NCBI RefSeq assembly: GCF_041248615.1
Contig: NZ_CP158426.1
DNA length: 64,000 nucleotides
Origin: Escherichia coli
Lineage (GTDB): Bacteria > Pseudomonadota > Gammaproteobacteria > Enterobacterales > Enterobacteriaceae
Strand: one strand, 5' to 3'
Below, piece by piece: positions 21,830 to 42,500 of this stretch (position 1 is its first letter; each line of letters opens with the position of its first letter). A model generated the notes under the pieces. It had not been told where the DNA came from, made no database searches, and saw nothing but the letters and a program-made list of their open reading frames with translations. The position numbers and the translations under genes were made by a program.

Positions 21830-23371
21830 ATGCCAACAGTTCCAATTTCTATGAGAAAACTTAAAGAAATTCTTAGGCTTAAATACGGTGTTGGACTCAG
21901 CCATCGACAAATTGGTCGTAGTCTTGCAATCTCCCCTTCCGTTGTATCCAGATATGCTAATCGGGCGGCTCAACTTGGCATAAAGCAGTGGCCCTTACCT
22001 ACAGGATGGGATGATACAAAACTAAAACATGCGTTCCTTCAGACCCAGGTTAAGATGAAGAAGCACTCTCTGCCTGACTGGGCTACAGTACACCGGGAAC
22101 TGCGTAATAAATGCGTGACGCTGCAGCTACTCTGGGAAGAATACTGTGAGCGTAATCCAGGCGGTTTTTACAGCTATAACCATTACTGCCGGATGTACCG
22201 TGAATGGCTCAAAACCACTTCACCATCAATGCGTCAGGTACATAAAGCTGGCGAAAAACTTTTCGTTGATTACTGTGGACCTACCGTTGGCGTTACCGAC
22301 CCTGAGACCGGAGAAATAAGAACTGCTCAGGTCATCGTAGCTGTTCTCGGGGCATCAAGTTACACATGGGCAGAGGCCACCTGGTCTCAGCAGCTTGAAG
22401 ACTGGGTGATGAGTCATGTTCGCTGCTTCCAGTGGTTGGGTGGCGTTCCTGAACTTGTTGTTCCGGACAATCTGAAAAGCGCCACATCCAGGGCATGTAA
22501 GTATGATCCTGACGTTAACCCTACCTACCAGCAGATGCTTGAGCATTATAATGTCGCAGTTTTGCCTGCGCGGCCACGTAAACCGAAAGATAAAGCCAAA
22601 GCTGAAGTTGGCGTTCAGGTTGTTGAACGCTGGATCATGGCCCGAATCAGGCATGAGATCTTCTACAGCCTTGCATCGCTTAATCAGCGCATTCGGGAGT
22701 TGCTGGAAAGACTGAATAACAAAATAATGCAGAAGTTGGGTTATTCACGTGCAGAACTCTTCATCCAGCTTGATAAACCCGCACTGAAGCCTCTTCCTGA
22801 AGCCAGTTACAGTTACACCCTGGTGAAGAAAGTCAGAGTTCATGCCGATTACCACGTGGAAATCGACAAACATTACTACTCGGTTCCATGTTCGCTGTTA
22901 GGCCAGCAACTGGAAGCATGGATCTCCGGAGAACTGGTAAGACTCTTCAATCAGGGGCAGGAGGTTGCTGTGCACCCGCGCAAGCGTACTTATGGCTACA
23001 GTACCCGCAACGAGCACATGCCTGAAGCTCATCGACAGCATGCCACCTGGACGCCAGAGCGTCTTCTGGAATGGGCGGGGCACATAGGCAGTGAAACTCA
23101 TAGTTATGTGCTTCATATACTGAACTCTCGTCCACATCCGGAACAAAGCTATCGCTTCTGCCTTGGACTCCTGAACCTTCATAAAAAATACAGTAAAGCC
23201 AGACTTAATGCAGCATGTGCAAGAGCTCTGAAAACAAAGGTATGGCGTCTGTCAGGTATTAAATCGATCCTGGAAAAAGGTCTGGATAAACAACCTGTTC
23301 AGGATCCAAAACCAGATCTGTTATCCACGATGGAACACGAAAACGTACGCGGCAGTGAGTATTACCACTGA
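21830..23371 (+). CDS. istA: IS21-family transposase IstA
   Basis: 513 aa; N-terminal HTH; DDE-type integrase core; followed by istB. Confidence 0.9.
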   Translation: MPTVPISMRKLKEILRLKYGVGLSHRQIGRSLAISPSVVSRYANRAAQLGIKQWPLPTGWDDTKLKHAFLQTQVKMKKHSLPDWATVHRELRNKCVTLQLLWEEYCERNPGGFYSYNHYCRMYREWLKTTSPSMRQVHKAGEKLFVDYCGPTVGVTDPETGEIRTAQVIVAVLGASSYTWAEATWSQQLEDWVMSHVRCFQWLGGVPELVVPDNLKSATSRACKYDPDVNPTYQQMLEHYNVAVLPARPRKPKDKAKAEVGVQVVERWIMARIRHEIFYSLASLNQRIRELLERLNNKIMQKLGYSRAELFIQLDKPALKPLPEASYSYTLVKKVRVHADYHVEIDKHYYSVPCSLLGQQLEAWISGELVRLFNQGQEVAVHPRKRTYGYSTRNEHMPEAHRQHATWTPERLLEWAGHIGSETHSYVLHILNSRPHPEQSYRFCLGLLNLHKKYSKARLNAACARALKTKVWRLSGIKSILEKGLDKQPVQDPKPDLLSTMEHENVRGSEYYH

Positions 23372-23382
23372 TACGGGATCCA

Positions 23383-24132
23383 ATGATGAATCATCTTTAC
23401 GAACAACTGACCGCACTTAAACTCACCGGCTTCCGTGATGCGCTTAAAAAGCAACTTGCTCAGCCGGGCACATACCAGGAGCTGGGCTTCGAAGAACGCC
23501 TGTCATTACTGACAGCAGAAGAACTAACCTGCCGTGAAAACAGGAAGGCAGAGCGTCTGATCAAACATGCACGGTTCAGACTTAATGCTGAGTTATCAAA
23601 GCTGGATTATCGTAACAATAGAGGGCTGGACAGGGCCCTCATCCGTTCACTCAGTCAGGGAAACTGGTTAACCCTGAAACAAAATATTTTACTGACCGGG
23701 GCCACCGGCAGCGGTAAAACGTTCCTGGCATGTGCACTTGGTCATAATGCCTGCCGACAGGGATACAAGGTCTACTATTATCGCCTTAAAGCGCTGATGG
23801 AACAGTGCTATCAGGGGCATGCTGATGGAAGATACAGCAAACTTTTGACCAGGCTGAATAATAGCGATCTGCTGCTTCTGGATGACTGGGGGCTGGAACC
23901 TCTCTCATCAGAACAGCGTAGCGACCTGCTGGAAATAGTGGATCTGATGTACCAACGAGGCTCAATCATCGTAGTGAGCCAGTTGCCGGTGGAAAACTGG
24001 TACAAAATGATCGGAGACTCCACACATGCGGATGCCATCCTAGATCGACTGGTTCATGGCAGTATCAAGATCGAACTTAAAGGAGAATCAATGCGGAAAA
24101 TACAATCTCCGTTGACCGAAGGAGATCAGTGA
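23383..24132 (+). CDS. istB: IS21-family ATP-binding helper IstB
   Basis: 249 aa; Walker A GATGSGKT. Confidence 0.9.
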   Translation: MMNHLYEQLTALKLTGFRDALKKQLAQPGTYQELGFEERLSLLTAEELTCRENRKAERLIKHARFRLNAELSKLDYRNNRGLDRALIRSLSQGNWLTLKQNILLTGATGSGKTFLACALGHNACRQGYKVYYYRLKALMEQCYQGHADGRYSKLLTRLNNSDLLLLDDWGLEPLSSEQRSDLLEIVDLMYQRGSIIVVSQLPVENWYKMIGDSTHADAILDRLVHGSIKIELKGESMRKIQSPLTEGDQ

Positions 24133-27498: not shown

Positions 27499-27560
27499 TT
27501 CTCCCCCTCATGTGATTCAGGCAGTTTACTCACCCCTTACAGGCCTCCTGCCATGCCCGG

Positions 27561-27585
27561 TGTTGTCGGCATTCGCTTACAACAA
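27561..27585. promoter_or_regulatory. Ogr-type late-promoter dyad (TGT-N12-ACA) between divergent gpP and gpO
   Basis: TGTTGTCGGCATTCGCTTACAACAA; centre about 76 and 80 bp from the two start codons. Confidence 0.5.
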
Positions 27586-27652
27586 ACGCACTTTGTCTGT
27601 CCCTGCCCCGTTTTGCCATCATGAGACAAACGATCATCACGAGGGCCCGACA

Positions 27653-28489
27653 ATGCCTGAACAGAAAAAAACATCCCGTAAAACATTCCGCGTGGCCGTT
27701 TCCGGTCCCACCGCAGACGGTCGCGAAATCAGTGCCGCAGATTTGCGCGCGGCGGCCAGTAACTTCAACCCTGAGATTTACGGCGCACGCGTGAACGTGG
27801 AGCACTGGCTTTCACCGGTTCCGTCCAGTGAATTTTCCGCCATGGGTGATGTGACGGCACTGAGCACAGAAGAAATCACCGAAGGTCCGCTGGTCGGTCG
27901 TACTGCGCTGTATGCGGAAATCGAACCCACCGACCGCATGAAAAATCTGGTCTCCCGGGGTAAGAAAATTTACTCCAGTATTGAGCTGGCACGAAATTTC
28001 ACCCCTACGGGCACCCCGTATCTTATTGGCCTTGCCATGACAGACACCCCGGCAAGCATCGGCACGGAGCGTCTTCAGTTCGCCCTGCAGCAGCGCCGTT
28101 CGGTCATGACCTTCAATAATCAGCAGACGGAAGCACCGATGTTCTCTGACGCCATTGAGGCTGAAGTGATCGAACTGACGGAGCGCCGCAGCGAGGAAGG
28201 TGCGCAGTGGCTTAACCGCGTGATGAACATGATTGGGCGAGGACGCAGGGCTGACGACACCCGGTTCTCCCGCATTCATGACGCCGTTGAGGGGATAGCC
28301 TCATCGCATGCCGACCTTCTCGACCGCTTCAGTGCACTGGAATCGCGCCATCAGGCAGACAGACAGAAAATCGCCACCCTGTCCACTGAGCTGGCAGAGC
28401 TGAAAAACAGACTGCGCGGACTGGACGCTGATCAGGAAAGTCGTTTTACGGCAACCGGCGGGCAGTCCAGACAACTGGCTGACTACTGA
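27653..28489 (+). CDS. capsid scaffold protein (P2 gpO-like)
   Basis: 278 aa from ATG 27653; precedes major capsid gene. Confidence 0.85.
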   Translation: MPEQKKTSRKTFRVAVSGPTADGREISAADLRAAASNFNPEIYGARVNVEHWLSPVPSSEFSAMGDVTALSTEEITEGPLVGRTALYAEIEPTDRMKNLVSRGKKIYSSIELARNFTPTGTPYLIGLAMTDTPASIGTERLQFALQQRRSVMTFNNQQTEAPMFSDAIEAEVIELTERRSEEGAQWLNRVMNMIGRGRRADDTRFSRIHDAVEGIASSHADLLDRFSALESRHQADRQKIATLSTELAELKNRLRGLDADQESRFTATGGQSRQLADY

Positions 28490-28517
28490 CAGAAATAACC
28501 ACAAGAGGTGATAACCG

Positions 28518-29657
28518 ATGAATCTGATCATGAGCGATGCCGCGCGGGCCGAGCTTTTTGCTTACCAGGCACAACAGGCGGAGATGAATAACATCACGAT
28601 ATCTGCGCTCTCCTCCCGCTTTTCGGTACAGCCGGCAGTGCAGCAGAGATTTGAAAACGCATCAAAGGAAAGCCATGATTTTCTTCAGAAAGCCAACAGC
28701 ATTGGTGTGACAGAGCAGAAAGGTGAAAAGGTACTCCTGGACACCACCGGGCCGGTTGCGCGCACGAACAGCAGTTATGACGGTACAAATCGTCGTAACC
28801 CGCTGAATGTGGTGGACATGAAAGCGCGACGCTATGAGTGCGAGCAGGTGAACTACGACACCTTCATCTCCTACCCTCAGCTTGACATGTGGGCCGGACA
28901 CCCTGACTTCCAGCTGCGTGTGAGTCGCCAGATTGCCAGACAGGTGGCACTTGATCGCATCATGACAGGTTTTAACGGTACGCACCATGCGGAAGTCTCG
29001 GATATAAAAAAACACCCGCGACTTGAGGACGTCAATAAGGGGTGGCTGCAGGATATCAGGGACCAGGCCCCGCAACGCGTCATGAAAGACGTGATGCTGA
29101 CTGCGCGCAATATGGACAATTCGGTGGCATACACAGGCAGATACGCCAATCCCGATGCACTGGTCCAGGATGCACGCTCATCCCTGCTTGACGAATGGCA
29201 CAAGGACGCAGACGACCTCGTTGTCATCATGGGGCGAAACCTCTTTAACTCCCTGCGCCTGCCGGTCCTGAACAGTATCAGCATGCAGAATGCGAATGCC
29301 GAACTGCTTGCCGGACAGCTCATTGTGTCAACGCGGACCATTGGCGGCCTTGATGTGTACCTTGCGCCATTTTTCCCGGCTCAGTCAATGCTCATCACCT
29401 CATTCAGCAACCTGTCGGTTTACTGGCAGAAGGGGTCCATGCGTCGTCTCATGAAGGATGAGCCCGAATACAACCGTATCGCCATCTATCAGTCCGTTAA
29501 CGACTGCTATGTGGTTGAGGACCATGGTAAGTGCGCACTGATTGAGAATATCAGCTTTGCCACATATGACCATGACGCGCCGGACTGGTACCGGGAGGGC
29601 ATAAAAGCACTGTCAGCGCAGGCTGAAGACAAGGATGCAGGGGAAGAGGAGGATTAA
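28518..29657 (+). CDS. major capsid protein (P2 gpN-like)
   Basis: 379 aa; SD AGAGGTG. Confidence 0.85.
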   Translation: MNLIMSDAARAELFAYQAQQAEMNNITISALSSRFSVQPAVQQRFENASKESHDFLQKANSIGVTEQKGEKVLLDTTGPVARTNSSYDGTNRRNPLNVVDMKARRYECEQVNYDTFISYPQLDMWAGHPDFQLRVSRQIARQVALDRIMTGFNGTHHAEVSDIKKHPRLEDVNKGWLQDIRDQAPQRVMKDVMLTARNMDNSVAYTGRYANPDALVQDARSSLLDEWHKDADDLVVIMGRNLFNSLRLPVLNSISMQNANAELLAGQLIVSTRTIGGLDVYLAPFFPAQSMLITSFSNLSVYWQKGSMRRLMKDEPEYNRIAIYQSVNDCYVVEDHGKCALIENISFATYDHDAPDWYREGIKALSAQAEDKDAGEEED

Positions 29658-29659
29658 CC

Positions 29660-30436
29660 ATGCTGACACCGGCACAGGCTCATTTCCAGCACGTGATGGC
29701 TTTACGGGCAGGAACGGCAGCAGAAAACGAGGATATCGTGGCCCGCACGGCTCATGAGCAGGTCCTTCACCGTCTGCGCCTGGCACAGCAACGCATAAAG
29801 GGCGTCCAGGCAAAAGCGGCAAAGGCCGCGCTCAAGCGTGAAATGCTGCCGGGTTTTGCAGGCTGGATAGACGGCACGCTGGAAGCCGACGGCGGACAGC
29901 AGGATGAGGTGATAGCCACACTCATGGTGTGGGCCGTGGACTGTGGCGACCTGGCGCTTGCACTGCGCATCGGGGATTATGTGGTTCGCCACAACCTCAC
30001 GATGCCTGACAACTTCGGGCGTACGGCAGCCACGGTACTGACCGAGGAAATCTGCAACCCTGTTCTGACACAGGCCGGAACGGATGCACACGCCGATTTG
30101 TCCGGCTACATCGAACCGCTGGACACCCTCTGGCAAATTGTCGCGAACCGGGACATGCCCGATGAGGTCCGCGCCAAGCTGTGCAAGGCATGCGCCTTTG
30201 CCCGTCGTGGCCTGACCGATGCCGACAGCATGGCGGTGAGTCTGAAGCTGTTCCGTGAGGCAATGCACCTTAACCCGAATGCGGGGGTAAAACGTGAGAT
30301 TGCCACGCTTTCACGGGCCCTGAAAAAGGCCGGACAGGATGAAGCCGCTGCCGCACAGGAGCCTGCGGCACAGAAAGATACAACCAGAGAACAGACCACG
30401 ACGCCGAAGGCGAAAGCGAAGGCGAAACGTGGTTAA
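29660..30436 (+). CDS. terminase small/endonuclease subunit (P2 gpM-like)
   Basis: 258 aa; conserved DMPDEVRAKL region recalled from P2 M. Confidence 0.85.
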   Translation: MLTPAQAHFQHVMALRAGTAAENEDIVARTAHEQVLHRLRLAQQRIKGVQAKAAKAALKREMLPGFAGWIDGTLEADGGQQDEVIATLMVWAVDCGDLALALRIGDYVVRHNLTMPDNFGRTAATVLTEEICNPVLTQAGTDAHADLSGYIEPLDTLWQIVANRDMPDEVRAKLCKACAFARRGLTDADSMAVSLKLFREAMHLNPNAGVKREIATLSRALKKAGQDEAAAAQEPAAQKDTTREQTTTPKAKAKAKRG

Positions 30437-30538
30437 CGGCTGACCCCGTCAGAAGGCGGCGTGCCGGGCGTTCCGGTTACGGTTTTCCGTTCCCCTTACA
30501 CCCGGCACCCACCGCCTTTTTTTCTGAAGGAGCGATTT

Positions 30539-31033
30539 ATGAGCATGGTCGCAAGACCGGAAGCCGCCCCTGCACGGGACGATATCCCCGACACCGACGA
30601 CGGCGACGCCACCATCACCGCCGGGGCATTCTGGCCGGAGATTGTGCTGCGGGAGCTGCGCCTTGCAGTACGCCTGCCGGGCCGCATCACCTCCACACGT
30701 CTGGCGCACGTTGCCACGGGAGCCGTGGCTCACGTCACGCGGGAGCTGGAAGAGTGGCAGAAGGCGCAGTCTGCCGCAGGGTTCAGCATCCTCGCAGAAG
30801 TGCCTGCCGCCACCATCAACGGTGAGAGCGTCAACGTATGGCATTACCGCAACGCCGTCTACAGCGCCACCCGCGCCCTGATTCTGGAACGCTGGCGGGA
30901 TGTGGACACCACTGATAAAGGGGACCGCCGGGCTGACGCACTGGATGAGCAGATGGAAGACTTATGGCGCGATGTGCGCTGGTCCGTGGCAGATATTCTG
31001 GGTCGCCCCCGTCTTTTTGCGGAGCTGGTGTGA
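30539..31033 (+). CDS. head completion protein (P2 gpL-like)
   Basis: 164 aa from ATG 30539 with SD GAAGGAG. Confidence 0.8.
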   Translation: MSMVARPEAAPARDDIPDTDDGDATITAGAFWPEIVLRELRLAVRLPGRITSTRLAHVATGAVAHVTRELEEWQKAQSAAGFSILAEVPAATINGESVNVWHYRNAVYSATRALILERWRDVDTTDKGDRRADALDEQMEDLWRDVRWSVADILGRPRLFAELV

Positions 31034-31230
31034 TGAAAGTGAGGGCACTCCAGGGGGATACCGTCGATTTACTCTGTTTCCGGCACTACGGCACCACGCA
31101 GGGGGTGACCGCACAGGTACTTGATGCCAATCCAGGGCTCTGCCGCCAGGTAATTCTGGAAGCGGGACAGGAGGTGGAAATGCCGGAGCCGGAAAGGAAA
31201 CAGCAACGCGAAAAGGTAAAGCTATGGTGA
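31033..31230 (+). CDS. tail protein X (LysM-like, P2 gpX-like)
   Basis: 65 aa MKVRALQGDTVDLLCFRHYG; ATG overlaps gpL stop. Confidence 0.85.
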   Translation: MKVRALQGDTVDLLCFRHYGTTQGVTAQVLDANPGLCRQVILEAGQEVEMPEPERKQQREKVKLW

Positions 31231-31514
31231 CGGGATTTTTTCAGCGCGTCAGTGACTGGATCACCTTCTGGGCGTCAGTGACGGCAACAACCATTGGTGT
31301 TATGACCATCAGCGAAAAAATTGCGCTGGCCGGGCTGCTTCTGGGGTCACTTTCCGCCATCCATGCCTGGTGCCACCGCAGGCGTACGGAGCAGGCAATG
31401 AAGCGCCGCAATGACCTTATCGCCCGCATCCTGGCACGTTCAGAAAACCGCGAGCTTCACGACGGTGAGAGACGGGCACTGGACAGCGTGAGACAGGACG
31501 GAGAAGAGCGGTGA
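31224..31514 (+). CDS. holin (pinholin-like, 2 TM)
   Basis: 96 aa; two TM segments then charged C-terminus; immediately upstream of endolysin. Confidence 0.7.
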   Translation: MVTGFFQRVSDWITFWASVTATTIGVMTISEKIALAGLLLGSLSAIHAWCHRRRTEQAMKRRNDLIARILARSENRELHDGERRALDSVRQDGEER

Positions 31515-32056
31515 AACTGCCGGTAAAACGTTATGCGGTGGCGGCCATTGTGGCGCTGGGCGTCTCCATGGCACCCGGTGAACTGAGAACCTCACGGGAA
31601 GCACAGATAAAAATCGCCACCCGGGAAGAGTGCCGGGCGACACCGTACCGTGATATTGCAGGAGTAATGACCGTGGGATGTGGTTCAACAGGGGGCGTGG
31701 AGAACCGGGTTTACGGAGAAAAGGAGGTGGCCCGCCGCTGGGTGAATGACCTGCGGCACGCGGAAAACTGTATCAACCAGAACTTCAGCGGTGCCGCCAT
31801 GCCCCAGTCCGCCTTTGAGGCGATGACCGACGCGGCGTTCAACGTCGGCTGTACCGGCCTGATGTGGTACCGGGACAGGAGCGGCAACCGGCAGCGCACC
31901 ACCATCTGGAAGCACGCACAGGCGCACCGCTGGGTGGCGATGTGCGGGAGACTGACCGATTTTGTCAACAGTGGCGGACGCCGCTCACAGGGGCTGGTTA
32001 ACCGCCGGGAGGAGTTCAGACAGTGGTGTCTTCGCGACACGGGAGGCAGCACATGA
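31511..32056 (+). CDS. SAR endolysin (T4/P21-type lysozyme, GH24-like)
   Basis: 181 aa; N-terminal signal-anchor; motifs YRDIAGVMTVGCG and NVGCTG; REEFRQWC tail as in phage-21 lysozyme. Confidence 0.8.
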   Translation: MKLPVKRYAVAAIVALGVSMAPGELRTSREAQIKIATREECRATPYRDIAGVMTVGCGSTGGVENRVYGEKEVARRWVNDLRHAENCINQNFSGAAMPQSAFEAMTDAAFNVGCTGLMWYRDRSGNRQRTTIWKHAQAHRWVAMCGRLTDFVNSGGRRSQGLVNRREEFRQWCLRDTGGST

Positions 32057-32460
32057 GACCGGTTTACGCCGTGATTGTTGCCCTCATGGTGACCACCCTG
32101 ACGGCGGCGGCCATGTGGCAGTCATACCGGCTGGGGCGTGCCGGTGAGGCACGTGACGCCGCAGAGCAGCAGCTGGGCGAATACAGCCGGGCGCTGCGTG
32201 AGTCCTCCGCCGTTATCAGCGATGCCTCCGCCGTACTGCATGAGGTGATGACGCAGCGACAGAAAAGGGCACAGGAAGGAGAAGTCAGACGTGAACAGCT
32301 TCGCGAAATTGCTGCGACGGATGAGTGCGCCGGCACTCTTCCTGACCACCGTTTTACTGACCGGCTGCGCGAACACACGGAACGCGCCACTGCCCGCGCC
32401 CTCCTTCCGGTTCATTCCGGCGGGACTGACGACGGGAACACGGCCCCCGCCCTTCCCTGA
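32053..32460 (+). CDS. i-spanin (Rz / P2 LysB-like)
   Basis: 135 aa; ATGA overlap with endolysin; N-terminal TM then coiled coil. Confidence 0.7.
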   Translation: MRPVYAVIVALMVTTLTAAAMWQSYRLGRAGEARDAAEQQLGEYSRALRESSAVISDASAVLHEVMTQRQKRAQEGEVRREQLREIAATDECAGTLPDHRFTDRLREHTERATARALLPVHSGGTDDGNTAPALP

Positions 32461-32605
32461 ACACCCCACCTGGGGAAATATCGGGATATGGAGCGACAGC
32501 CTCCTGGATGCACTGGAAACCTGCAACGCAGACAAACGGGCCATTGAGGCGATGGAGCGCCGGAGACTCAACCGACAGAACGGAGAGGCGCATGCTGAAA
32601 AGTAA
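32291..32605 (+). CDS. o-spanin lipoprotein (Rz1 / P2 LysC-like), out of frame within and beyond the i-spanin gene
   Basis: GTG start with SD AGGAAGGAG; signal peptide with lipobox LLTGC; Pro-rich. Confidence 0.65.
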   Translation: MNSFAKLLRRMSAPALFLTTVLLTGCANTRNAPLPAPSFRFIPAGLTTGTRPPPFPEHPTWGNIGIWSDSLLDALETCNADKRAIEAMERRRLNRQNGEAHAEK

Positions 32606-33056
32606 ATCCCTGAGCACACACATGAGTACAGCGTGCCGGTGGTGCAGGGCCAACCCGGAAAAGTTCACCGTGTTCATTGAACGTGGCGGGATAGAGACCA
32701 CCGGCGAGACGCCGACGTTCGTGTACAACTACCGGCTGGTGATGTTCGTGATGGACTACACGGGCGATCTGGACAACCTGACGCTTCCACTGATTGTCTG
32801 GCTGGCAGAGAACCAGCCGCAGTTGCTGCTTAATCCTGAGCGCAACAACGATATTCAGTTCACGGCGGCCATTAACGACGACGACAGCGCGGACGTGCTG
32901 TTTGAGCTGCCGTTACGTGAACGCGTGCGCGTCACCCGCAGGGATGACGGCACCCTCATGACAGAACATCTACCGGAGCCGAAATCACGCATCCCGCAGG
33001 ACGGCGACTGGTCACACATTCTGGAGGATGTGACGTGGAACATTGTCACCGGATAA
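32592..33056 (+). CDS. tail completion protein (P2 gpR-like)
   Basis: 154 aa from ATG 32592 with SD GGAGAGG. Confidence 0.8.
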   Translation: MLKSKSLSTHMSTACRWCRANPEKFTVFIERGGIETTGETPTFVYNYRLVMFVMDYTGDLDNLTLPLIVWLAENQPQLLLNPERNNDIQFTAAINDDDSADVLFELPLRERVRVTRRDDGTLMTEHLPEPKSRIPQDGDWSHILEDVTWNIVTG

Positions 33057-33071
33057 CACGCGGAGAATGTT

Positions 33072-33728
33072 ATGGGGAAACTGAGATACCGTAACCTCGT
33101 TCCCGCTGAAGGAATGAGTAACATGTTTGTCAATATCCGGCTGGCAACCAGCCCGCAGGCAGTGAAGCGCATTGCCGCGCATGTGGGTAAGGAGCTGCGG
33201 CGCGTGAACCAGAGCCGGATGCGCGCCCAGAAAGCGCCGGACGGTTCGGTGTGGACACGCCGTAAACGCCGTATATCACGCCTTCAGGAGCGCATCAGCT
33301 TTATCTGGCAAAACCAGAACCGCACCCTGAAAAACTGGCATCACGGTTCAGGAAAATACGGCCAGACCATCACCGGCTGGGATGAAGACCGGAGCGGCAT
33401 ACGTACCTTTTACCGGAGTGATATCCTCCGTTTCCTTGAAATCAGGACACGCCGCATCAACCGTGACACCACAAAAACGGTGCCGATGTTTGCGAAGCTG
33501 CGCACGGCCCGTTATCTGAAAGTGAAGGCGGACGCATCAGGCGTGACGGTGGGCTACAGCGGCGTGGCGGCACGCATTGCCCGCGTTCACCAGTTCGGGG
33601 AGCGCGACCGGGTGGCCGCAGGGATGTATACGGATTATCCGGCCCGTGAACTTCTTGGAATAACACCGGCAGATGAACGACTTATTCAGCGTATCATTAT
33701 GGACAATATCGCGAGGGCTGTGGCATGA
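33072..33728 (+). CDS. virion morphogenesis / tail completion protein (P2 gpS-like)
   Basis: ORF open from 33072 (SD GGAG); true start may be internal (33114) giving a shorter product. Confidence 0.7.
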   Translation: MGKLRYRNLVPAEGMSNMFVNIRLATSPQAVKRIAAHVGKELRRVNQSRMRAQKAPDGSVWTRRKRRISRLQERISFIWQNQNRTLKNWHHGSGKYGQTITGWDEDRSGIRTFYRSDILRFLEIRTRRINRDTTKTVPMFAKLRTARYLKVKADASGVTVGYSGVAARIARVHQFGERDRVAAGMYTDYPARELLGITPADERLIQRIIMDNIARAVA

Positions 33729-34306
33729 ACGCGGAATTAATGCGCCTTATCAGCAACATCATCAGAACCGGCGTGATTTTCGACGTGAACCCGCAGACCT
33801 GGGAGGTCCGGGTGCGCAGTGGCGGACTGGAGACAGGCTGGCTTCGCTGGAGCACCGCGCGGGCGGGCGCGTTCAGTGTCTGGGTGCCGCCAGCCACCGG
33901 TGAACAGGTGGCGTTCGTCTGTATCGGTGGTAATCCCGAAACCGCGATAATCATCGGCAGCCTCTGGAGCGATGATATCCCGGCACCGGGCAGCACACTG
34001 AAGGAAATCATCATGACAGCACCGGACGGTGCGGTATTCCGCTACGATGCAGACGCCGGTGCACTGGAGGTTAAGGGGATTAAAACAGCCAGCATTCAGG
34101 CCGACACGCGCATCACCCTGGACACGTCGGAGGTGGTGTGTACCCGCAAACTTATCACCGCCACCCTGGAGGTGCAGAACGGCGGCGAGATGCGCGGCAG
34201 CATATCCCACAGCGGCGGCAGCCTGACATCCAACGGTATCACCGTTCATACGCACACCCACGGTGGCGTCAGGACGGGCCCGGGCACCACGGGAGGCCCG
34301 CAATGA
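33725..34306 (+). CDS. baseplate spike protein (P2 gpV-like)
   Basis: 193 aa; ATGA-coupled to gpS. Confidence 0.85.
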   Translation: MNAELMRLISNIIRTGVIFDVNPQTWEVRVRSGGLETGWLRWSTARAGAFSVWVPPATGEQVAFVCIGGNPETAIIIGSLWSDDIPAPGSTLKEIIMTAPDGAVFRYDADAGALEVKGIKTASIQADTRITLDTSEVVCTRKLITATLEVQNGGEMRGSISHSGGSLTSNGITVHTHTHGGVRTGPGTTGGPQ

Positions 34307-34653
34307 CCGCTGTTTACAGGGGGATGAACCCGCAGGGAACCGGCACGCTGAGCGACAGCGAACACCTGAAAAACAGCGTGCGGGATATCCTGACCACACC
34401 GCCAGGCAGCCGGGTGATGCGCCGCGAATACGGCAGCCTGTTACCGGACCTCATCGACGAGCCCATGAACGACACCACGCGTTTACAGTGCATGAGCGCC
34501 ACGGTGACTGCGCTGGCGCGCCATGAACCCCGTATAGCACTGCAGAACGTCGATGTGAACTGGCGGGCTGGCGGACGCGCCGTGGTGACGTTATCCGGCA
34601 TCATCACCGAAACCATGCAGAACATCACATTCAGTATCACCCTGAGGGAGTAA
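34303..34653 (+). CDS. baseplate wedge protein (P2 gpW-like)
   Basis: 116 aa from ATG 34303 overlapping gpV stop. Confidence 0.85.
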   Translation: MTAVYRGMNPQGTGTLSDSEHLKNSVRDILTTPPGSRVMRREYGSLLPDLIDEPMNDTTRLQCMSATVTALARHEPRIALQNVDVNWRAGGRAVVTLSGIITETMQNITFSITLRE

Positions 34654-34656
34654 ATC

Positions 34657-35553
34657 ATGCCTTCCGTTGACCTGTCACAGTTACCGGAACCGGCCATCAT
34701 CGCGCAGCCGGATTTTGAGTCCATCCTGGCAGACATTAAAACCATGATGGTGAGCTCCTTCCCGGAAGAATACCGCGCCGCCGTCACCCGTGCCCTTACT
34801 CTGGAATCCGAGCCATTGAACATCATTTCCCAGGCCATGGCCTTTCGTGAAATGCTGCTTCGCCAGCGCATCAATGAAGCCGCCCGCGCCTGCATGCTCA
34901 GCCACAGCCGGGGCAGTGACCTGGACAATCTGGCCGCCAACAACAACACCCGCCGCCTGGTCATTCATCCGGCCACTGATACCACGGAAGCAGTGATGGA
35001 AAGCGACACATCGCTGCGTCTGCGTGCCCAGTCAGCCTGGGACGGCCTGAGTGTGGCCGGACCGTCCGGCGCGTATGAGTATTTTGCCCGGAGCGCAAGC
35101 GGTCTTGTCCGTGATGCGCGCGCCATCAGCCCGTCACCGGCCACAGTCACCGTCTCCATCCTGTCAGCAGACGGTGACGGCACCGCCGGTGAGGCGTTAC
35201 TGAACACGGTGCGCACCGCCCTGAATGCCGAGAACGTGCGCCCGGTTGCCGACCGCCTGACTGTGCAGAGTGCTACCATCGTGAACTGGGTAATGGAAGC
35301 GAAGCTGTATTTTTATCCAGGGCCGGAGTCTGAACCCATGCTTGCGGCCGCTGACGCCGCTTTCCGTGCATGGCTGGCAGACCAGGGCCGTATCGGTCAG
35401 GACGTGGCCCTGTCAGCCATCACTGCAGCGCTGCATGTTCACGGTGTCCAGCGCGTTGAGGTCATAAAACCCACGCAGAACATCACCATCAGTGACACTC
35501 AGGCAGCCAGATGTACCACATTCAGCATCAGCGAAGGAGGACGCAATGAGTGA
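34657..35553 (+). CDS. baseplate protein (P2 gpJ-like)
   Basis: 298 aa. Confidence 0.85.
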   Translation: MPSVDLSQLPEPAIIAQPDFESILADIKTMMVSSFPEEYRAAVTRALTLESEPLNIISQAMAFREMLLRQRINEAARACMLSHSRGSDLDNLAANNNTRRLVIHPATDTTEAVMESDTSLRLRAQSAWDGLSVAGPSGAYEYFARSASGLVRDARAISPSPATVTVSILSADGDGTAGEALLNTVRTALNAENVRPVADRLTVQSATIVNWVMEAKLYFYPGPESEPMLAAADAAFRAWLADQGRIGQDVALSAITAALHVHGVQRVEVIKPTQNITISDTQAARCTTFSISEGGRNE

Positions 35554-36109
35554 CAGGAAAAAAACAGACAGCGCACAGCACAGTACATCACTGCTTCCAC
35601 CGTCCGCAGGGCCATTCATGCGCGCCACAGAGGCGACAGGAGTACGCATCAGTACCATACCGGTGGACGCCGACACCCTGTGGTCGCCGGACCGCTGCCC
35701 TGCTCACCTCCTGCCCTACCTTGCATGGGCATGTTCCGTTGACAGCTGGGACCGCAACTGGCCGGAAGAGACCAGGCGACAGGTGATTCGGGACGCATGG
35801 ATGATACATCGCCACAAAGGGACCATCAGTGCACTCCGCCGCATCGTTGAACCACTGGGCTACCTCATCCGTGTATCAGAATGGTGGGAGTTTGACGGCT
35901 CGCCCGGGACCTTCACCATTGAGATTGGCACACTTGAAACCGGAGTAAGTGAAGAGCTGCATGAAGAAATGGAGCGTCTGATTGCCGATGCGCGCCCCGT
36001 CAGCCGCCACCTCGTGGGGCTTAGTATCATCCAGGAAATACACGGTGCCATTTACGCCGCTGCCGCAGGTTACGACGGCGACATCATCACCATTTACCCG
36101 GAAGACTGA
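35546..36109 (+). CDS. baseplate protein (P2 gpI-like)
   Basis: 187 aa from ATG 35546 overlapping gpJ stop. Confidence 0.8.
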   Translation: MSDRKKTDSAQHSTSLLPPSAGPFMRATEATGVRISTIPVDADTLWSPDRCPAHLLPYLAWACSVDSWDRNWPEETRRQVIRDAWMIHRHKGTISALRRIVEPLGYLIRVSEWWEFDGSPGTFTIEIGTLETGVSEELHEEMERLIADARPVSRHLVGLSIIQEIHGAIYAAAAGYDGDIITIYPED

Positions 36110-36112
36110 ACC

Positions 36113-38347
36113 ATGAGCACGAGAAAATTCAGAACCCTTATCACCGACATCGGGCTGGCAAAGCTGGCCGCAACAACGGCGCCTGGCGGTAGACCTGTAC
36201 GCCTTACGCACATGGCTGTAGGGGACGGCAATGGAGAGCTTCGTCAGCCGCAGAAAAACCAGACATCGCTTTACAATGAGGTTTGGCGCCAGTCTGTCAA
36301 CCGCGTCTTCACCGACCCGGAGAACCCGAACCGCCTCATCGCCGAACTGGTCATTCCTCCTGAAACCGGCGGATTCTGGGTGCGTGAAATTGGTGTGTTT
36401 GATGATACAGGTACAATGATTGCAGTAGGAAATACCGCTGAAAGTTACAAGCCCACCAGAGAGGAAGGTTCAGGGCGGGCGCAGATATTCCGTGCAGTAA
36501 TCACCGTCACCTCCGACGCCGTGGTGGAACTGGTCATGGACACAACAACAATTCTGCCGACCACGGACTACATTGATGAGAAAATGGCGGAACACGCACG
36601 TTCCCGTAACCACCCTGACGCGACACTGACAGAAAAAGGATTCACCCAACTGAGCAGCGCCACAAACAGCACCTCTGAAACACTGGCCGCCACACCGAAG
36701 GCCGTCAAGGCTGCATATGACCTTGCAGCCGGTAAAGCACCCGCCAGCCACACCCACCCGTGGAATCAGATAACTGGTGTGCCATCAGCCTCGCTGACGG
36801 CAAAAGGCACCGTACAGCTGAGCAGTGCCACAAACAGTGAGTCAGAGACTGAGGCGGCCACCCCCAAAGCGGTTAAAGCCTTACACGATATGGTGACGAG
36901 CAAGTATACAGGACAGGATGCAACCACCGGACGCAAAGGCATCGTACAGCTGAGCAGCGCCACAAACAGCAATTCCGAAACACTGGCGGCCACACCGAAG
37001 GCAGTAAGTGATGCACTGAGCATGGCGTTCGTGAAGCCAACAACATCCCTGGGGGAAACAGACCTGAACACTCTGGGGCGTAAGGAAGACGCGGGAGATT
37101 ATTACCAGCAGAGTGACTCAGGTGCGAGAACAGACAGAAACTATCCTGTAGAGAAGGCAGGAGAGTTACGCATCCGTGTTGGTGCATGGGGATTCTGCCA
37201 GCATGAATACACGAGCTGGGATCCGCCACGAAAATTTATCAGGACAGTTACCGGAAACTTTAACGGTAACGGCCCATGGTCAGAGTGGGTGGAGGTGACA
37301 AACACAGATGCAACAACTGGACGCAAAGGCATCGTACAGCTGAGCAGCGATACAAACAGCAATTCCGAAACGCTGGCGGCCACACCAAGAGCCGTCAAGG
37401 CTGCATATGACCTTGCAGCCGGTAAAGCACCCGCCAGCCACACCCACCCGTGGAATCAGATAACAGGTGTGCCATCAGCCTCGCTGACGGCAAAAGGCAC
37501 CGTACAGCTGAGCAGTGCCACAAACAGTGAGTCAGAGACTGAGGCCGCCACCCCCAAAGCGGTTAAAGCCTTACACGATATGCTGACGAGCAAGTATACA
37601 GGACAGGATGCAACCACCGGACGCAAAGGCATCGTACAGCTAAGCAGCGCCACAAACAGCAATTCCGAAACGCTGGCGGCCACACCAAAAGCTGTTAAAG
37701 CTGCGTATGACCTTGCCAACAGCAAAGCCTCGGCAGCCCACACTCATCGCTGGGCTCAGATCACAGACGCCCCTGTTTTTTCGTCTGTTGCCCGCGTCAT
37801 CATGGGTAAACAAAGCATAAAAGATATTCTTGATTACTTTGGTTTAGGAGAAGGCTCGACGCTGCCAGTTGGCGTACCCGTTCCGTGGCCTTCGTCAAGA
37901 CCACCTGAGGGGTGGTTACAGTGCAACGGTGCCGCATTCACGCGTACAAAATACCCAAAACTGGCGGTGGCCTACCCTGACCTCAGGCTACCAGATTTGC
38001 GCGGGGAATTTATTCGTGGATGGGATGACCTGCGAATGATTGACAGGGGACGCTTATTGTTATCCACACAGGAAGCAACATATATTTGTACCGCCATACA
38101 GGCGTACCACGGCGTAGCGGGAGGTGCAGATATTCAGGCAGGGATTTCATTTGCATCACATGATAACGACATCATAAACATAACCCCTGATCAACCCAGA
38201 ACCGGTAACGGCATCCTGTACGGCACAAAACCAGTTGACAGATGGGCAATAGCCAGAGCCGGTAAGCTGGTGAGTAATGAAAAAGACAGATGGATAGCGA
38301 TCAGACCGCGCAATATCGCTTTTAATTATATTGTGAGGGCAGTTTAA
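36113..38347 (+). CDS. tail fibre protein (P2 gpH-like) with internal repeats
   Basis: 744 aa; repeated 35-aa units (GRKGIVQLSSATNSxSETLAATPKAVKA); divergent lower-GC C-terminal tip. Confidence 0.85.
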   Translation: MSTRKFRTLITDIGLAKLAATTAPGGRPVRLTHMAVGDGNGELRQPQKNQTSLYNEVWRQSVNRVFTDPENPNRLIAELVIPPETGGFWVREIGVFDDTGTMIAVGNTAESYKPTREEGSGRAQIFRAVITVTSDAVVELVMDTTTILPTTDYIDEKMAEHARSRNHPDATLTEKGFTQLSSATNSTSETLAATPKAVKAAYDLAAGKAPASHTHPWNQITGVPSASLTAKGTVQLSSATNSESETEAATPKAVKALHDMVTSKYTGQDATTGRKGIVQLSSATNSNSETLAATPKAVSDALSMAFVKPTTSLGETDLNTLGRKEDAGDYYQQSDSGARTDRNYPVEKAGELRIRVGAWGFCQHEYTSWDPPRKFIRTVTGNFNGNGPWSEWVEVTNTDATTGRKGIVQLSSDTNSNSETLAATPRAVKAAYDLAAGKAPASHTHPWNQITGVPSASLTAKGTVQLSSATNSESETEAATPKAVKALHDMLTSKYTGQDATTGRKGIVQLSSATNSNSETLAATPKAVKAAYDLANSKASAAHTHRWAQITDAPVFSSVARVIMGKQSIKDILDYFGLGEGSTLPVGVPVPWPSSRPPEGWLQCNGAAFTRTKYPKLAVAYPDLRLPDLRGEFIRGWDDLRMIDRGRLLLSTQEATYICTAIQAYHGVAGGADIQAGISFASHDNDIINITPDQPRTGNGILYGTKPVDRWAIARAGKLVSNEKDRWIAIRPRNIAFNYIVRAV
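36640..37700 (+). repeat. near-identical ~330-bp duplication inside the tail fibre gene
   Basis: segments around 36640-36990 and 37300-37690 almost identical at DNA level. Confidence 0.7.
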
Positions 38348-39528: not shown

Positions 39529-42500
39529 CTAATCTCTGTCACGGAAACTACCGACTGTCTGGCGGATACGGCGTTCCATTTCCGCACGGACGGCATCACC
39601 CACCATTTTTGCCAGTTCGCGCGGGTTTTGCGTGTGAACATCATGCAGGTGAATATGCAGTTCGCCAGTTAATCCCCATGGTGCCGGCTCACTCTGGCGC
39701 GGTCGGGGCGATGCGGGGGATATGGGCTGGCGCACAGCCTCAACCACCGGACGGGATGTTGCCGCCATCACTGGTGTCATTAGCGGGGAGAACGTCGGCA
39801 TGACATCGTGAGTCATAACCGGTTTGATCACCGGCGGAACCACTGGCGTAATATTACCGGACAGTACCGGACGGACGACCGGAGGAATAACCGGCACATT
39901 ATTCACGGACACCACCGGCTTCACGACCGGCGACACGTTCGCCGTGGTGGATATCAGCGGCGAAACACTGACAGGCGGTGGCGCTGGCAGCGGTGGCAAC
40001 GAAGGCACACTGACCGACGGCACCTGCGGCAGTCTGACAGGTGGCTCACTGACACTACCCGGTAACAGGGAAGCTGCTCGGTTAAAGCGTTCCTCCTTCC
40101 ACTCACCACGAACGGCCAGCGCTTCCGGCAGGTTTTTAAAGATAATATCGCCGGGACCAGCGCGTTTTTTCGCCTGTTTCGCCTCATCCAGCAGACCACC
40201 GGTGTTATCGACGATTTTGTTCAGGCGGCGCATAGTGCCGGTATTCTCCCCCGTCAGGGGTGGTTGCCCCCCTTTGGGTTTTTCGCCGTCTTTTTTATCC
40301 TCGTCCTTTTTCGGCGGATTAATGACGTTAACATCCGCCAGAAGCATGGCAGCTTTCTCGTTCAGCAACTCCTTCTGTTTTAGTTCTTCCGCCTTTTTCC
40401 GGGCGCGCTCAACCGCCGACGGAATCAGCCCGAGTTTTTCCAGCACCCGGGTTAATGAGTCAATCAGCAGCGTAACCGGACCGGTCACCAGATTGCTGAT
40501 AAACTCCCCTACCTTCTGCCCGAACGTACGCCCGGCTTCCGTGCACTTGTCCAGCTCATCCTTTGTTGTGCTTACCGGCGCGAACAAATCCACGAACCAC
40601 TGCCACACACGCCCGATTGTCTGCCCGACATACTCAAACAGCGGTCCCAGTGGTGCCACAGCCTCGCGCAGTGGCGTAAGCCCCTGCCACAGGCCGGACA
40701 AGAACCCGCCCACGACAGCCTTCAGCTGGTCCCAGTGCCGCCAGATAAGCACTGCCGCACCGACCAGTGTCGCCACCACAAGGCCCACCGGACTTAACAG
40801 AAAACCCAGCGCCCCGCCAAGTGCGCCCACCGCACCACTCACCATCCCCCACAGTGCGGGCAGACCTGACAGTCTGAGCGCCAGTATTCCGATACCGCGC
40901 CCCAGTGAAATCAGTGCGCCGCCAGGTGAAGTGAACGCAGCCAGCAGACCACCACGCAGCGCGCCAAGTCCCGCCTGCACACCACGAAGCCGCCCCGCAA
41001 CTACGCCCAGCAGTGCAGCAAACCGTCCGGCACCGGAGGTGATACCGACAAACAGCACGCGCCAGCCACCGATACCGCCCAGCGGACCACCGAGTACGCC
41101 GCGCAGCTGCGTCAGTAACGGCAGCGCACGACCGAGGCCGGATGTGCCGGTCAGCAGGGCAAACCCAAGACGCAGTTTTGCCAGCGGCCCCATCAACACA
41201 CCAGTGGCAAGTGACAGCGCCCCCATGGCCGCAACCGCAGCCAGCAGTACACCACCGGCAATCAGCAGTTGTTTTGTCAGTTCAGGGTGCGCCTGAGCCA
41301 GCGCGGTGACTTTCGCAATAACCCGGGTGAACGACTGCGTGACAGAACGCAGCGGCCCGTCAACGAGGTCAGCGACACGGATACGCAGTCCTTCCCATGC
41401 GCTGTTCAGTGATTTCAGGTCACCGTCCAGGTTATCAGCCATAACACGGGCAGTGTGATTAAGTTCCCCGGTGGCCAGTTCAATCTCCTGCGTAAGACGG
41501 GGAAGATTATTTTCCCCCGCCGCAGTGACAAGATTCATCAGGGAAACATAGGACTCCTGCCCGGCAATAGCCCTGAAAAAGGAGACCTGCGCGGCATTAC
41601 CGTATTTTCGGGTGGCCTGGTACAGCTCATTCAGGATATTTTCCATCCGGCGCATGTTCCCGTAAGCATCCTGCGTCTCCACGCCAAGCTCTTTCAGTGC
41701 CATTGCAGCGGCCTTCGGCGGATCAACCAGACGTGACAGACTGGCACGCAGCGCCGTACCTGCATCACTTCCACGGATCCCCACACTGCCAAGGACACCC
41801 GTCATGGCTGCCGCCTGTTCAAGGGACAGGCCAAGTGAAGCTGCAACCGGACCCGTGTACTTCATGGTTTCACCCAGTGAACGGAGATCCGTATTGGTTC
41901 GTGTGAAGGTGGCGGCCAGCGTGTCACCCACGCGATCCATCTGGTCAGCGGACAGACCAAACTGTGTGAGGATATTCGAACTGATATCGGCAGTCTGTCC
42001 CAGGTCCATCCCTGCAGCCATTGCCAGATCAAGCACGCCGGGTAGCGCCGCCTGTATGGCCTGTGGTGTGAAGCCGGCCATGGCAAGGAACGCCTGACCG
42101 CTGGCAGCATCACCGGCGGTAAACTGCGTTTCAGAGCCCAGCTTAATGGCCTGTTCGCGCAGCGCCTTAAACTGCGGACTGTTTTTGTCAATACGGGTCA
42201 GCGCCTGGACGCGTGACATCTCCTTACCAAAACTGACCGCCGGTTGCAGGAAACGTCCGGCCGCATAGCCGCCTGCCGCCGCCGTACCAACCGCCGTAAG
42301 TCCGACCGTTTTAAGTTTTCCCGCCGTCTCCTGAGCACGGGAATATTGCTGGCGTGCCTGCGTGACACGTGCCAGCGCCTGCCGTTCGCGTTCCAGCTGG
42401 TCGTTGTATTGCTGTGTTCGCCGTATGGCCTGTTGAATGGTGTTGTCACTGCCGGAAAGCGCAATACCGTGGCGCCGCAGCTCACCACCCAGTTCGCGCA

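Follow-up and report, generated by a model that had tools for sequence, protein, structure and literature searches.

Which lysis system occupies the interval between X and R among the tail genes of a prophage in Escherichia coli NRZ14408, how would it work, and has it been swapped in from another phage? A preliminary description of the DNA had listed four lysis genes here and read them as a product of modular exchange in a P2-type backbone. In the window—the whole stretch of 64,000 nucleotides that was analysed—we confirmed four tightly overlapping genes on the + strand at 31224-32605, each at the position reported (Table 1). The prophage is a member of the P2 family (Peduoviridae). The L, X, R, and S proteins around the cassette are of P2 type with Pfam E-values of 1e-46 to 1e-20, far beyond chance; the X protein shares 48% identity with P2 X and 72% with X of the Enterobacter phage phiT5282H. 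The overall explanation that we favour, with a probability of about 0.8, is a lysis set composed of a predicted Sec-exported, membrane-tethered SAR endolysin together with a holin and spanins. By its predicted products, the cassette is a complete and fairly ordinary lysis gene set, HP1-like rather than P2-like, and the pairing of a pinholin with a SAR endolysin in a P2-family phage is already known from HP1 (PMC7312051). What is new here lies in smaller points: the replacement of P1-type cysteines by a Tyr8/Asp48/Cys57 combination in the endolysin, and the cutting away of both membrane-targeting signals in the RefSeq annotation.

Table 1. Positions in the window of the lysis genes, their sequence features, the flanking genes, and candidate promoter sites
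Feature	Position	Strand	Evidence or remark
TGT-N12-ACA dyad	27564..27581	.	intergenic, terminase/portal operon to scaffold gene
Second TGT-N12-ACA site	45282-45299		other expected late-promoter gap; pattern scan
Tail protein X	31033..31230	+	PF05489, E 9.6e-20; upstream cassette border, as in P2
Holin, 96 aa	31224..31514	+	PHROG 1350 'holin', E 7e-23
Holin TMD1, residues 12-30	31257-31313		hydropathy; G/A/S/T in 10/19
Holin TMD2, residues 33-51	31320-31376		hydropathy; G37xxxG41xxxA45 face
SAR-type endolysin, 181 aa	31511..32056	+	GH24 muramidase, P1 Lyz family; PF00959, E 1.4e-21
Endolysin anchor, Y8-G23	31532-31579		uncharged
RefSeq endolysin start, ATG (Met20)	31568		PGAP CDS 31568-32056
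Endolysin E39	31625-31627		triad E39-8-D48-5-T54
Endolysin D48	31652-31654		triad
Endolysin T54	31670-31672		triad
i-spanin (Rz/LysB-like), 135 aa	32053..32460	+	PHROG 214 Rz-like spanin, E 1.3e-25
i-spanin TMD, residues 4-22	32062-32118		predicted
o-spanin (Rz1/LysC-like), 104-aa precursor	32291..32605	+	Pfam LysC PF23793, 49.3 bits vs cutoff 27
Stretch shared by the spanin genes	32291-32460		3'-terminal 170 nt of the i-spanin gene
o-spanin lipobox LLTGC	32354-32368		Ala at +2 (LLTGC-A 32354-32371)
RefSeq lysC start	32414		3' of lipobox
Tail completion protein R	32592..33056	+	PF06891, E 3.7e-38; downstream cassette border

The first gene encodes a holin with two hydrophobic segments, in agreement with the two-TM protein described beforehand. 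Applying the positive-inside rule, we infer an N-in/C-in topology with a basic, charged, RRR-rich C-terminal tail of 46 aa that is predicted to be cytoplasmic, and the predicted protein combines three features of pinholins of the phage 21 S21-68 type, namely two transmembrane domains (TMDs), N-in/C-in orientation, and a weakly hydrophobic TMD1 that would be able to exit the membrane. No dual-start motif was found in the gene. Against the Pfam HP1-holin model (PF16080) the protein scored 19.8 bits, below the gathering score of 28.8, whereas HP1 Hol itself scored 84.6 bits; the window holin is also 18 aa longer than its HP1 counterpart. Comparison of the two holin families with hhalign nevertheless gave a probability of 91.7% (E 7.9e-7) over 59 columns spanning both TMDs—scores that can be inflated by membrane-helix composition—and the families matched PHROGs 1350 and 20 reciprocally, which suggests that the window holin is a distant relative of the HP1 holin. 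No relationship to S21 emerged from Pfam at E<0.01, which returned only the sub-threshold PF16080 match, and BLASTP detected no similarity to P2 Y, a three-TMD holin (PF04550); in NCBIfam, neither the holin nor the spanins could be assigned to a usable family. A releasin (Mu gp25-like) was also considered for this 96-aa protein with its long charged tail and was rejected on its two TMDs, the lack of a DUF2730 match, and its holin PHROG matches.

Does the holin form pinholes? Experiments published in 2020 showed that HP1 Hol behaves like a pinholin and HP1 Lys like a SAR endolysin that depends on Sec (PMC7312051), and most phages with SAR endolysins encode pinholins (PMC9239132). Given its architecture and its distant kinship to the HP1 holin, the protein is plausibly a pinholin. 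A canonical large-hole holin beside a SAR endolysin is the strongest of the alternatives, and we regard it as having a real, if minority, claim: P1 sets the precedent, with LydA working alongside the SAR endolysin Lyz (PMC9025707), so that a SAR partner does not by itself imply pinholes, and the absence of sequence kinship with the pinholin of phage 21, the sub-threshold Pfam score, and a charged tail unlike that of S21-68 all fit such a protein. The TMDs themselves point the other way, TMD1 being of low hydrophobicity with many G/A/S/T residues and TMD2 carrying a GxxxGxxxA face, as does the remote homology to HP1 Hol, which retains beta-galactosidase (PMC7312051). A SAR-type endolysin also lies directly downstream of the holin homologue in 80/80 loci, although these loci are fairly closely related and so provide no independent lines of evidence.

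The second gene begins with a GTG inside the holin stop codon (GTGA), and its product scores 77.6 bits against PF00959 (cutoff 22.3), which places it in GH24. The preliminary description had called its lysozyme motifs phage-21-like and had set the protein apart from the soluble lysozyme K of P2. The second statement holds, as P2 K has neither a hydrophobic N-terminus nor a PF00959 match. The first is right as far as the E-8-D-5-T triad and the Cys-free SAR segment are concerned, both of which occur in phage 21, where a two-TMD holin likewise lies upstream; by kinship, on the contrary, P1 Lyz is far closer. Lyz is the nearest characterised relative (phmmer E 7e-36, 42-45% identity), against 24% identity and a TM score of 0.68 for R21 (PDB 3HDE/3HDF), and the family profile gives E 1.9e-66 for Lyz vs 1.7e-11 for R21. 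HP1 Lys falls into PHROG 7 together with the window endolysin, to which it is 38% identical. The AlphaFold model of the endolysin (pLDDT 93.7, ~98 for helix 10-20) agrees with 1XJT, the active form of full-length Lyz, at TM 0.89 and rmsd 1.8 A over 177 columns, the match extending to the refolded helix at the N-terminus, but fits poorly to 1XJU, the inactive form (TM ~0.6); the prediction thus places the N-terminal segment within the mature fold.

In SAR endolysins, basic residues at the N-terminus precede an uncharged segment of weak hydrophobicity in which G/A/S/T are abundant (PMC9239132). The endolysin shows this pattern, as had been claimed for its signal-anchor, with a basic N-region at residues 1-7 (MKLPVKR, charged at K2, K6, and R7) followed by 16 uncharged residues, a short segment with G/A/S/T in 8/17 residues and a mean Kyte-Doolittle value of 1.7. 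The same features could alternatively mark a cleavable Sec signal peptide that yields a free periplasmic lysozyme controlled by other means, like the lysin of Oenococcus phage fOg44: the uncharged core between MKLPVKR and E24 spans just ~11-16 residues and resembles an h-region, small residues occur at S19/A21 and at A15/G17, with a possible alternative cleavage site after A15-L16-G17, and SignalP-type tools also give a signal peptide for the HP1 Lys N-terminus (PMC7312051). We nonetheless consider cleavage improbable. Conservation of the IVALG stretch lies far above the usual level of signal peptides, and the corresponding segment in the sister clade holds a conserved Cys that in P1 Lyz acts after release, so that the segment must stay attached. 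Moreover, the residue directly after the sole AxA-like site (SMA) is Pro22, which is at least 90% conserved, and a Pro in the +1 position prevents cleavage by signal peptidase I. AlphaFold also packs helix 10-20 into the predicted fold exactly as in 1XJT.

P1 Lyz, the founding SAR endolysin, is controlled by disulfide isomerisation involving an anchor cysteine (C13), a caging cysteine (C44), and a catalytic cysteine (C51). The window endolysin has cysteines at positions 41, 57, 87, 114, 145, and 173 and none within residues 1-40. Its E39, D48, and T54 align with Lyz E42/C51/T57; C41 is the retained equivalent of C44, and four further Cys positions are kept, whereas C13 is replaced by Tyr8, C51 by Asp48, and Ile60 by Cys57. 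With anchor and catalytic cysteines both replaced, the redox switch of the P1 type cannot operate, and what remains is the R21-type arrangement of triad and Cys-free SAR segment, despite remote kinship to R21. HP1 Lys differs from the window endolysin in the same respect, having retained both cysteines. The Y8/D48/C57 combination characterizes the clade of the window endolysin without exception in 38 sequences (16/16 from databases, 22/22 viral), and this clade is nested within one of the Cys type. There may have been three coupled changes in the clade, Cys8->Tyr, Cys48->Asp, and Ile57->Cys. At somewhat short of even odds, we propose that the clade represents a distinct regulatory variant of P1 Lyz in which the redox switch has been dismantled, a static Cys41-Cys57 disulfide would staple the catalytic hairpin, and activation would come about by membrane release alone. 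The combination of C41, D48, and C57 with no anchor Cys also occurs in a distant clade at 31-35% identity (P0063, P0071), a recurrence that suggests convergence on an independently arisen alternative solution. The replacement constitutes a natural experiment on how tethered SAR endolysins are kept inactive, and simple mutagenesis of these positions could show whether the Lyz fold can dispense with disulfide caging.

The remaining two genes encode a two-component spanin, and the overlap and LLTGC lipobox that had been claimed for them are both present. The i-spanin gene starts within the endolysin stop codon (ATGA), and its predicted product has an N-terminal TMD, seen in the hydropathy profile, and then a helical domain in the periplasm that contains one Cys. 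It matches TIGR03495 (phage_LysB) weakly (E 0.003) and has no similarity to P2 LysB by BLASTP, and the link between the two passes through PHROG 214, itself a weak one (E 2e-4 for LysB). The o-spanin gene begins at a conserved GTG and lies in the +1 frame, extending 145 nt beyond the stretch that it shares with the i-spanin gene. Its mature part is proline-rich and has a conserved C-terminus, TWGxIxIWSDxLxDALxTCNADK. Similarity to P2 LysC is marginal by BLASTP; the proteins are linked by family models, both matching Pfam LysC and PHROG 456. An i-spanin TMD and an o-spanin lipoprotein encoded by overlapping genes correspond to the two-component, overlapped type of P2 LysB/LysC.

We then asked how the cassette relates to those of other phages. 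Like the window prophage, HP1 is a P2-family phage in which a two-TMD holin without dual start or antiholin is followed by an overlapping gene for an anchored, P1 Lyz-like lysozyme and then by spanin genes, but its cassette follows the tail tube genes and does not occupy the X-R interval. Phage 21 differs in the dual-start antiholin that the window cassette lacks, and in spanin genes that are embedded rather than overlapped. P2 carries its lysis genes at the same place, between X and R of the late O operon, and the differences from it are confined to holin, endolysin, and lysA: no homologues of Y or K were found by BLASTP, the Pfam and PHROG families differ, and the cassette has no room for lysA. 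The identical order, X-holin-endolysin-Rz/Rz1-R-S, is found in phiT5282H (Novemvirus) and in the Klebsiella phages ST16-OXA48phi5.4 (Reipivirus) and 3LV2017 (Reginaelenavirus), whose holins are 27-52% and endolysins 61-68% identical to those of the window and each of which keeps the lipobox in a +1-frame lipoprotein spanin gene; their endolysins, in contrast, are of the P1 type (Cys8, Cys48, Ile57). Relatives of the cassette could be reached at the protein level only, as megablast against 50,697 phage records gave no match.

If the cassette had been acquired recently from an unrelated phage by modular exchange, the process named in the first reading of this DNA, the lack of detectable similarity of holin and endolysin to P2 Y and K and the absence of lysA would be accounted for, but we find such an event very improbable. 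Identities to phiT5282H show no break at the cassette (58% for M, 56% for L, 72% for X, 52% for the holin, 68% for the endolysin, 63% for R, 52% for S, and 62% for V), GC content stays at 58-63% across it with no step at the borders, and the o-spanin is a LysC homologue, as in P2. The backbone of the prophage is 35-48% identical to P2 and 50-72% to phiT5282H, ST16-OXA48phi5.4, and 3LV2017, and the same cassette occurs in these three other Peduoviridae genera at backbone-like identities. Of the proposed modular exchange there remains an old event between sublineages that would concern holin and endolysin, which are not homologues of Y and K, and not the o-spanin, which belongs to the LysC family of P2.

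The lysis module would have no promoter of its own and would be transcribed within a long late operon. A scan for promoters and terminators found no + strand signal within the cassette, consistent with read-through from that operon. The upstream TGT-N12-ACA dyad is likely an Ogr/Delta-type activator site in the late promoter of O-N-M-L-X-holin-endolysin-spanins-R-S, an assignment in which we presume that P2 biology applies. The annotation of the prophage includes an ogr/Delta-like gene; the motif itself is not enriched across the whole window (10 found vs 16 expected), its placement being the sole support.

Gene identities, family memberships, hydropathy, conservation, and predicted fold form the observed basis for a proposed course of lysis, of which export, tethering, release, hole size, and timing are what we infer. 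The endolysin would be exported by Sec via its N-terminal signal-anchor and build up in an inactive state, anchored in the inner membrane with the muramidase domain facing the periplasm, while the two-TMD holin accumulates in the inner membrane up to the moment of triggering, when it would collapse the membrane potential, probably through small holes like those of the HP1 and phage 21 pinholins. The weakly hydrophobic anchor would then leave the bilayer and pack against the catalytic domain, the arrangement seen in active P1 Lyz, whereupon the E39/D48/T54 muramidase would degrade the cell wall. With Tyr8 and Asp48 in place of the anchor and catalytic cysteines, no thiol-disulfide isomerisation is available, and activation is presumably purely conformational; by analogy with R21, depolarisation is its likely trigger. 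Finally, the i-spanin/o-spanin complex would disrupt the outer membrane.

As phage biology, the cassette holds little out of the ordinary. It confirms that one genomic slot of P2-family phages can be filled by at least two holin-endolysin pairs that are not homologous, and it indicates that the HP1-type pair of SAR endolysin and predicted pinholin is widespread among enterobacterial Peduoviridae. For annotation there are practical consequences: RefSeq starts the endolysin at an internal ATG, losing the anchor, starts lysC downstream of the lipobox, losing that as well, and leaves holin and i-spanin as 'hypothetical', and genome surveys that use RefSeq records will misclassify such cassettes with anchor and lipobox removed. 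The RefSeq model of the endolysin as a 162-aa cytoplasmic lysozyme from Met20, which would need a large-hole holin, has the PGAP call and the greater frequency of ATG than GTG as a start codon in its favour but is scarcely credible, given that substitutions across the 19 upstream codons are biased to third positions (4143:2320:8740 differences at codon positions 1:2:3 of codons 7-23), that most homologues have Leu or Ile in place of Met20, that no Shine-Dalgarno sequence precedes 31568 while GGAG stands 7 nt before the GTG, and that homologues in databases and RefSeq phage records are long (179-183 aa). From this comparative evidence the N-terminal extension, conserved in 47 database homologues and in 80/80 viral loci, is translated.

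Two observations concern the prophage as a whole. An IS21-family insertion is present in it. An argument that the prophage is defective, taken from the partial flag that PGAP gives its tape-measure gene, was dropped: the gene is an intact ORF of 1115 aa in the window.

Gene calls from six-frame open reading frames and the raw sequence, together with agreeing family searches, confirmed the lysis cassette that the preliminary description had placed at 31224-32605; these limits coincide exactly with the start of the holin gene and the stop of the o-spanin gene. Consecutive genes overlap at all five junctions from the tail gene X through R; the endolysin gene begins with a GTG that is contained in the holin stop (GTGA) and preceded by GGAG at a distance of 7 nt, and the i-spanin start overlaps the endolysin stop as ATGA. 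No promoter or plus-strand terminator signal was found inside the cassette. Two TGT-N12-ACA dyads, at 27564-27581 and 45282-45299, fall in the gaps preceding the scaffold gene and the sheath operon, respectively, the two positions at which P2-type Ogr-dependent late promoters would be expected from P2 biology; the motif showed no overall enrichment. Two annotation errors accompany the cassette in RefSeq and are worth correcting: the RefSeq/PGAP models R2K29_RS16570 (31568-32056) and RS29395 (32414-32605) delete both membrane-targeting signals. The same annotation lists the holin and i-spanin as "hypothetical protein".

Genes of the lysis cassette and its two neighbors, with family assignments
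Gene	Position	Frame	Family match
Tail gene X	ends 31230		PF05489, E 1e-19
Holin	31224-31514		PHROG 1350, E 7e-23
Endolysin	31511-32056		PF00959, E 1.4e-21; PHROG 7, E 9e-48
i-spanin	32053-32460		PHROG 214, E 1.3e-25
o-spanin	32291 (most likely start)-32605	+1	Pfam LysC, 49.3 bits (cutoff 27)
R	starts 32592		PF06891, E 3.7e-38

The endolysin begins with MKLPVKR. The next 16 residues (Y8-G23) are uncharged, roughly half being Gly, Ala, Ser, or Thr; this stretch, though short, agrees with the working description of a signal-anchor-release (SAR) domain (PMC9239132). This extension, basic residues and then xAxAxIVALGxxxxP, is present in 47/47 sequences of alignment A3 (42 protein-database sequences, the window protein, and four phage reference enzymes) and in 80/80 related viral loci. 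An AlphaFold model built from the same alignment (pLDDT 93.7, and ~98 for helix 10-20) fits the active, full-length form of P1 Lyz, the founding SAR endolysin (1XJT; TM 0.89, rmsd 1.8 Å, 177 columns), and fits poorly the secreted inactive form (1XJU; TM ~0.6), with 0.68 for R21, the endolysin of phage 21. This fit predicts an N-terminal helix that belongs to the mature fold, which is how a SAR domain behaves after release. Basic N-region, uncharged segment, conserved extension, and modeled helix packing all favor the signal anchor proposed earlier, and we place the probability of a SAR domain at about 0.85. Cleavage as an ordinary signal peptide is improbable: the only AxA-like site, S19-M20-A21, is directly followed by Pro22 (at least 90% conserved), and signal peptidase I is blocked by Pro at +1. 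Very unlikely indeed is a true start at Met20 (ATG 31568), as in the 162-aa RefSeq lysozyme, which thereby loses the hydrophobic N-terminus; this start is contradicted by the conserved extension, by differences biased to third positions (4143:2320:8740 at codon positions 1:2:3 across codons 7-23 in 44 distinct DNA versions), the signature of a translated region, and by codon 20, which encodes Leu or Ile in the majority of homologues and so cannot be the family's start.

By sequence, the enzyme proved to be a relative of P1 Lyz (phmmer E 7e-36, 45% identity) rather than phage-21-like as initially described, and the endolysin-family profile scored Lyz at 1.9e-66 versus 1.7e-11 for R21. In P1 Lyz, the catalytic C51 is held in a disulfide with C44 until it is freed by C13 of the SAR segment, which attacks that bond. 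The window protein, in contrast, lacks the regulatory cysteines—C13/C44/C51 align to Tyr8/Cys41/Asp48—and has Cys57 at the position of Ile60. Cys8/Cys48/aliphatic57 occurs in 31 and Tyr8/Asp48/Cys57 in 16 of the 47 aligned sequences (57 and 22 viral loci, respectively), and the pattern is all-or-none, with no mixed types seen among close homologues in either set. Members of the Cys type include P1, HP1 (a Haemophilus P2-family phage), and Klebsiella and Enterobacter phages; in a neighbor-joining tree, the Tyr/Asp/Cys clade is nested within the Cys-type enterobacterial clade. An exhaustive profile search over 1.84 billion cluster representatives recovered C41/D48/C57 without an anchor Cys in two distant clusters as well (P0063 and P0071, which share 31-35% identity with the window protein and group near HP1 Lys), and the combination thus arose at least twice. 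An intermediate state, anchor Cys with C41 and D48, was present in 12 distant clusters of Lyz-like SAR lysozymes (including P0055, P0065, P0067, and P0070); we know of no description of P1, Lyz103, or R21 in which an anchor Cys and a C44-equivalent Cys accompany a catalytic Asp. We infer that the Tyr8/Asp48/Cys57 clade gave up disulfide caging and is controlled by tethering and release alone, like R21, with the new Cys57 plausibly pairing with the orphaned Cys41. The loss of the Lyz redox switch through these coupled replacements is the one modestly novel feature of the cassette.

The 96-aa holin has the two hydrophobic segments previously ascribed to it, joined by an S-E-K linker and followed by a tail beginning HRRR, an arrangement that implies N-in/C-in topology. 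Its first segment (WITFWASVTATTIGVMTIS) is 10/19 Gly/Ala/Ser/Thr, with G25, M27, and T28 invariant, and the second carries G37xxxG41xxxA45. It is not related to P2 Y (PF04550), does not match the phage 21 holin family, and contains no dual-start motif; the cassette holds no lysA-like gene. Against the HP1 holin model (PF16080) it scored below threshold (19.8 bits vs 28.8). A profile of 19 window-type holins matched one built from 14 HP1-type holins, with both transmembrane segments aligned (probability 91.7%, E 7.9e-7), and the window and HP1 holins match PHROGs 1350 and 20 reciprocally, tests that appear to tie the two families more firmly than the PF16080 score. HP1 Hol kills without lysis and without beta-galactosidase release, and HP1 Lys is a Sec-dependent, self-sufficient SAR endolysin (PMC7312051). 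We lean toward a pinholin; the alternative, a large-hole holin, has a precedent in P1 LydA (PMC9025707).

In the i-spanin, an N-terminal transmembrane segment (residues 4-22) precedes a helical periplasmic part that contains one Cys. For the o-spanin, GTG 32291 is the most likely start: it has AGGAGA 8 nt before it, and three related phages conserve the Asp-Val found there. From this start, the signal peptide reads MNSFAKLLRRMSAPALFLTTVLLTG followed by the lipobox Cys, with Ala at +2, bearing out the overlapping spanins and lipobox already reported; the RefSeq lysC start (32414) is downstream of the lipobox. The mature protein is proline-rich, with one Cys in a conserved C-terminal motif. It shares Pfam LysC and PHROG 456 with P2 LysC, whereas the link of the i-spanin to P2 LysB is weak (LysB matches PHROG 214, the best family of the i-spanin, at E 2e-4). 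The i-spanin itself matched TIGR03495 at E 0.003.

Modular exchange, the interpretation first offered, is only partly supported. Flanking proteins are 35-48% identical to their P2 counterparts; the holin and endolysin showed no similarity to P2 lysis proteins, which sets the endolysin apart from K as had been proposed, and lysA is missing. Identity to the Enterobacter phage phiT5282H (Novemvirus), on the other hand, stays smooth across the cassette (M 58, L 56, X 72, holin 52, endolysin 68, i-spanin 29, R 63, S 52, and V 62%), and the Klebsiella phages ST16-OXA48phi5.4 (Reipivirus) and 3LV2017 (Reginaelenavirus) share the layout, which makes the replacement an old one. Relative to P2, it is confined to holin and endolysin (plus lysA), the o-spanin sharing the LysC family, and marks a whole branch of the P2 family rather than just the prophage of E. 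coli NRZ14408, whose chromosome (NZ_LT599825.1) carries sequence identical to the window. HP1 has a related holin-endolysin pair, but at another genomic position. Occupying the P2 slot with an HP1-type holin, a Lyz-family SAR endolysin, and LysB/LysC-type spanins, the cassette belongs to a known kind.

The cassette is rare, occurring in only 28/5,426 complete E. coli genomes, many from chickens, and the same count holds for the prophage as a whole. This host element (11000-47000) is a P2-family prophage integrated between dmsA and serS, encoding integrase, Cox, replication endonuclease, portal/terminase through tail genes, and an ogr/Delta-like gene; its closest phage relatives have Enterobacter and Klebsiella as hosts. 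Prophage GC is about 58-63%; profiled over the late-gene region (27500-36500), it is ~52-65%, mostly 55-64% and well above the E. coli genome value of ~51%, with no step at the cassette borders. Exactly at the left prophage junction, dmsA and the integrase gene flank the sRNA STnc130 (10387-10521; 126 bits). Rfam searches placed isrK (60 bits) beside C4 antisense RNA (80 bits) in the early region, at 16014-16212, a P1/P7-type immunity RNA pair inside a P2-family prophage. Between the early genes and the portal gene, the IS21-family element ISEc12 (istA/istB; ~21830-24132) adjoins a truncated hypothetical gene. The S-like virion morphogenesis protein (33072-33728) is 204-218 aa long versus 150 aa in P2 and aligns to P2 S only over the C-terminal 80 residues; its long N-terminal part is common to phiT5282H, ST16-OXA48phi5.4, and 3LV2017. 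RefSeq treats the tape-measure gene (39529-42876, minus strand) as an incomplete pseudogene, leaving ~1.1 kb unannotated, while in the raw sequence a single intact 1115-aa open reading frame spans the whole stretch. Finally, the ~2.6 kb from the Hok/Gef gene to serS (46868-49961), mostly without annotation, consists of diverged direct repeats (70-230 nt units, 66-99% identical, two to four copies) that look like tandemly duplicated hok/sok-type loci.
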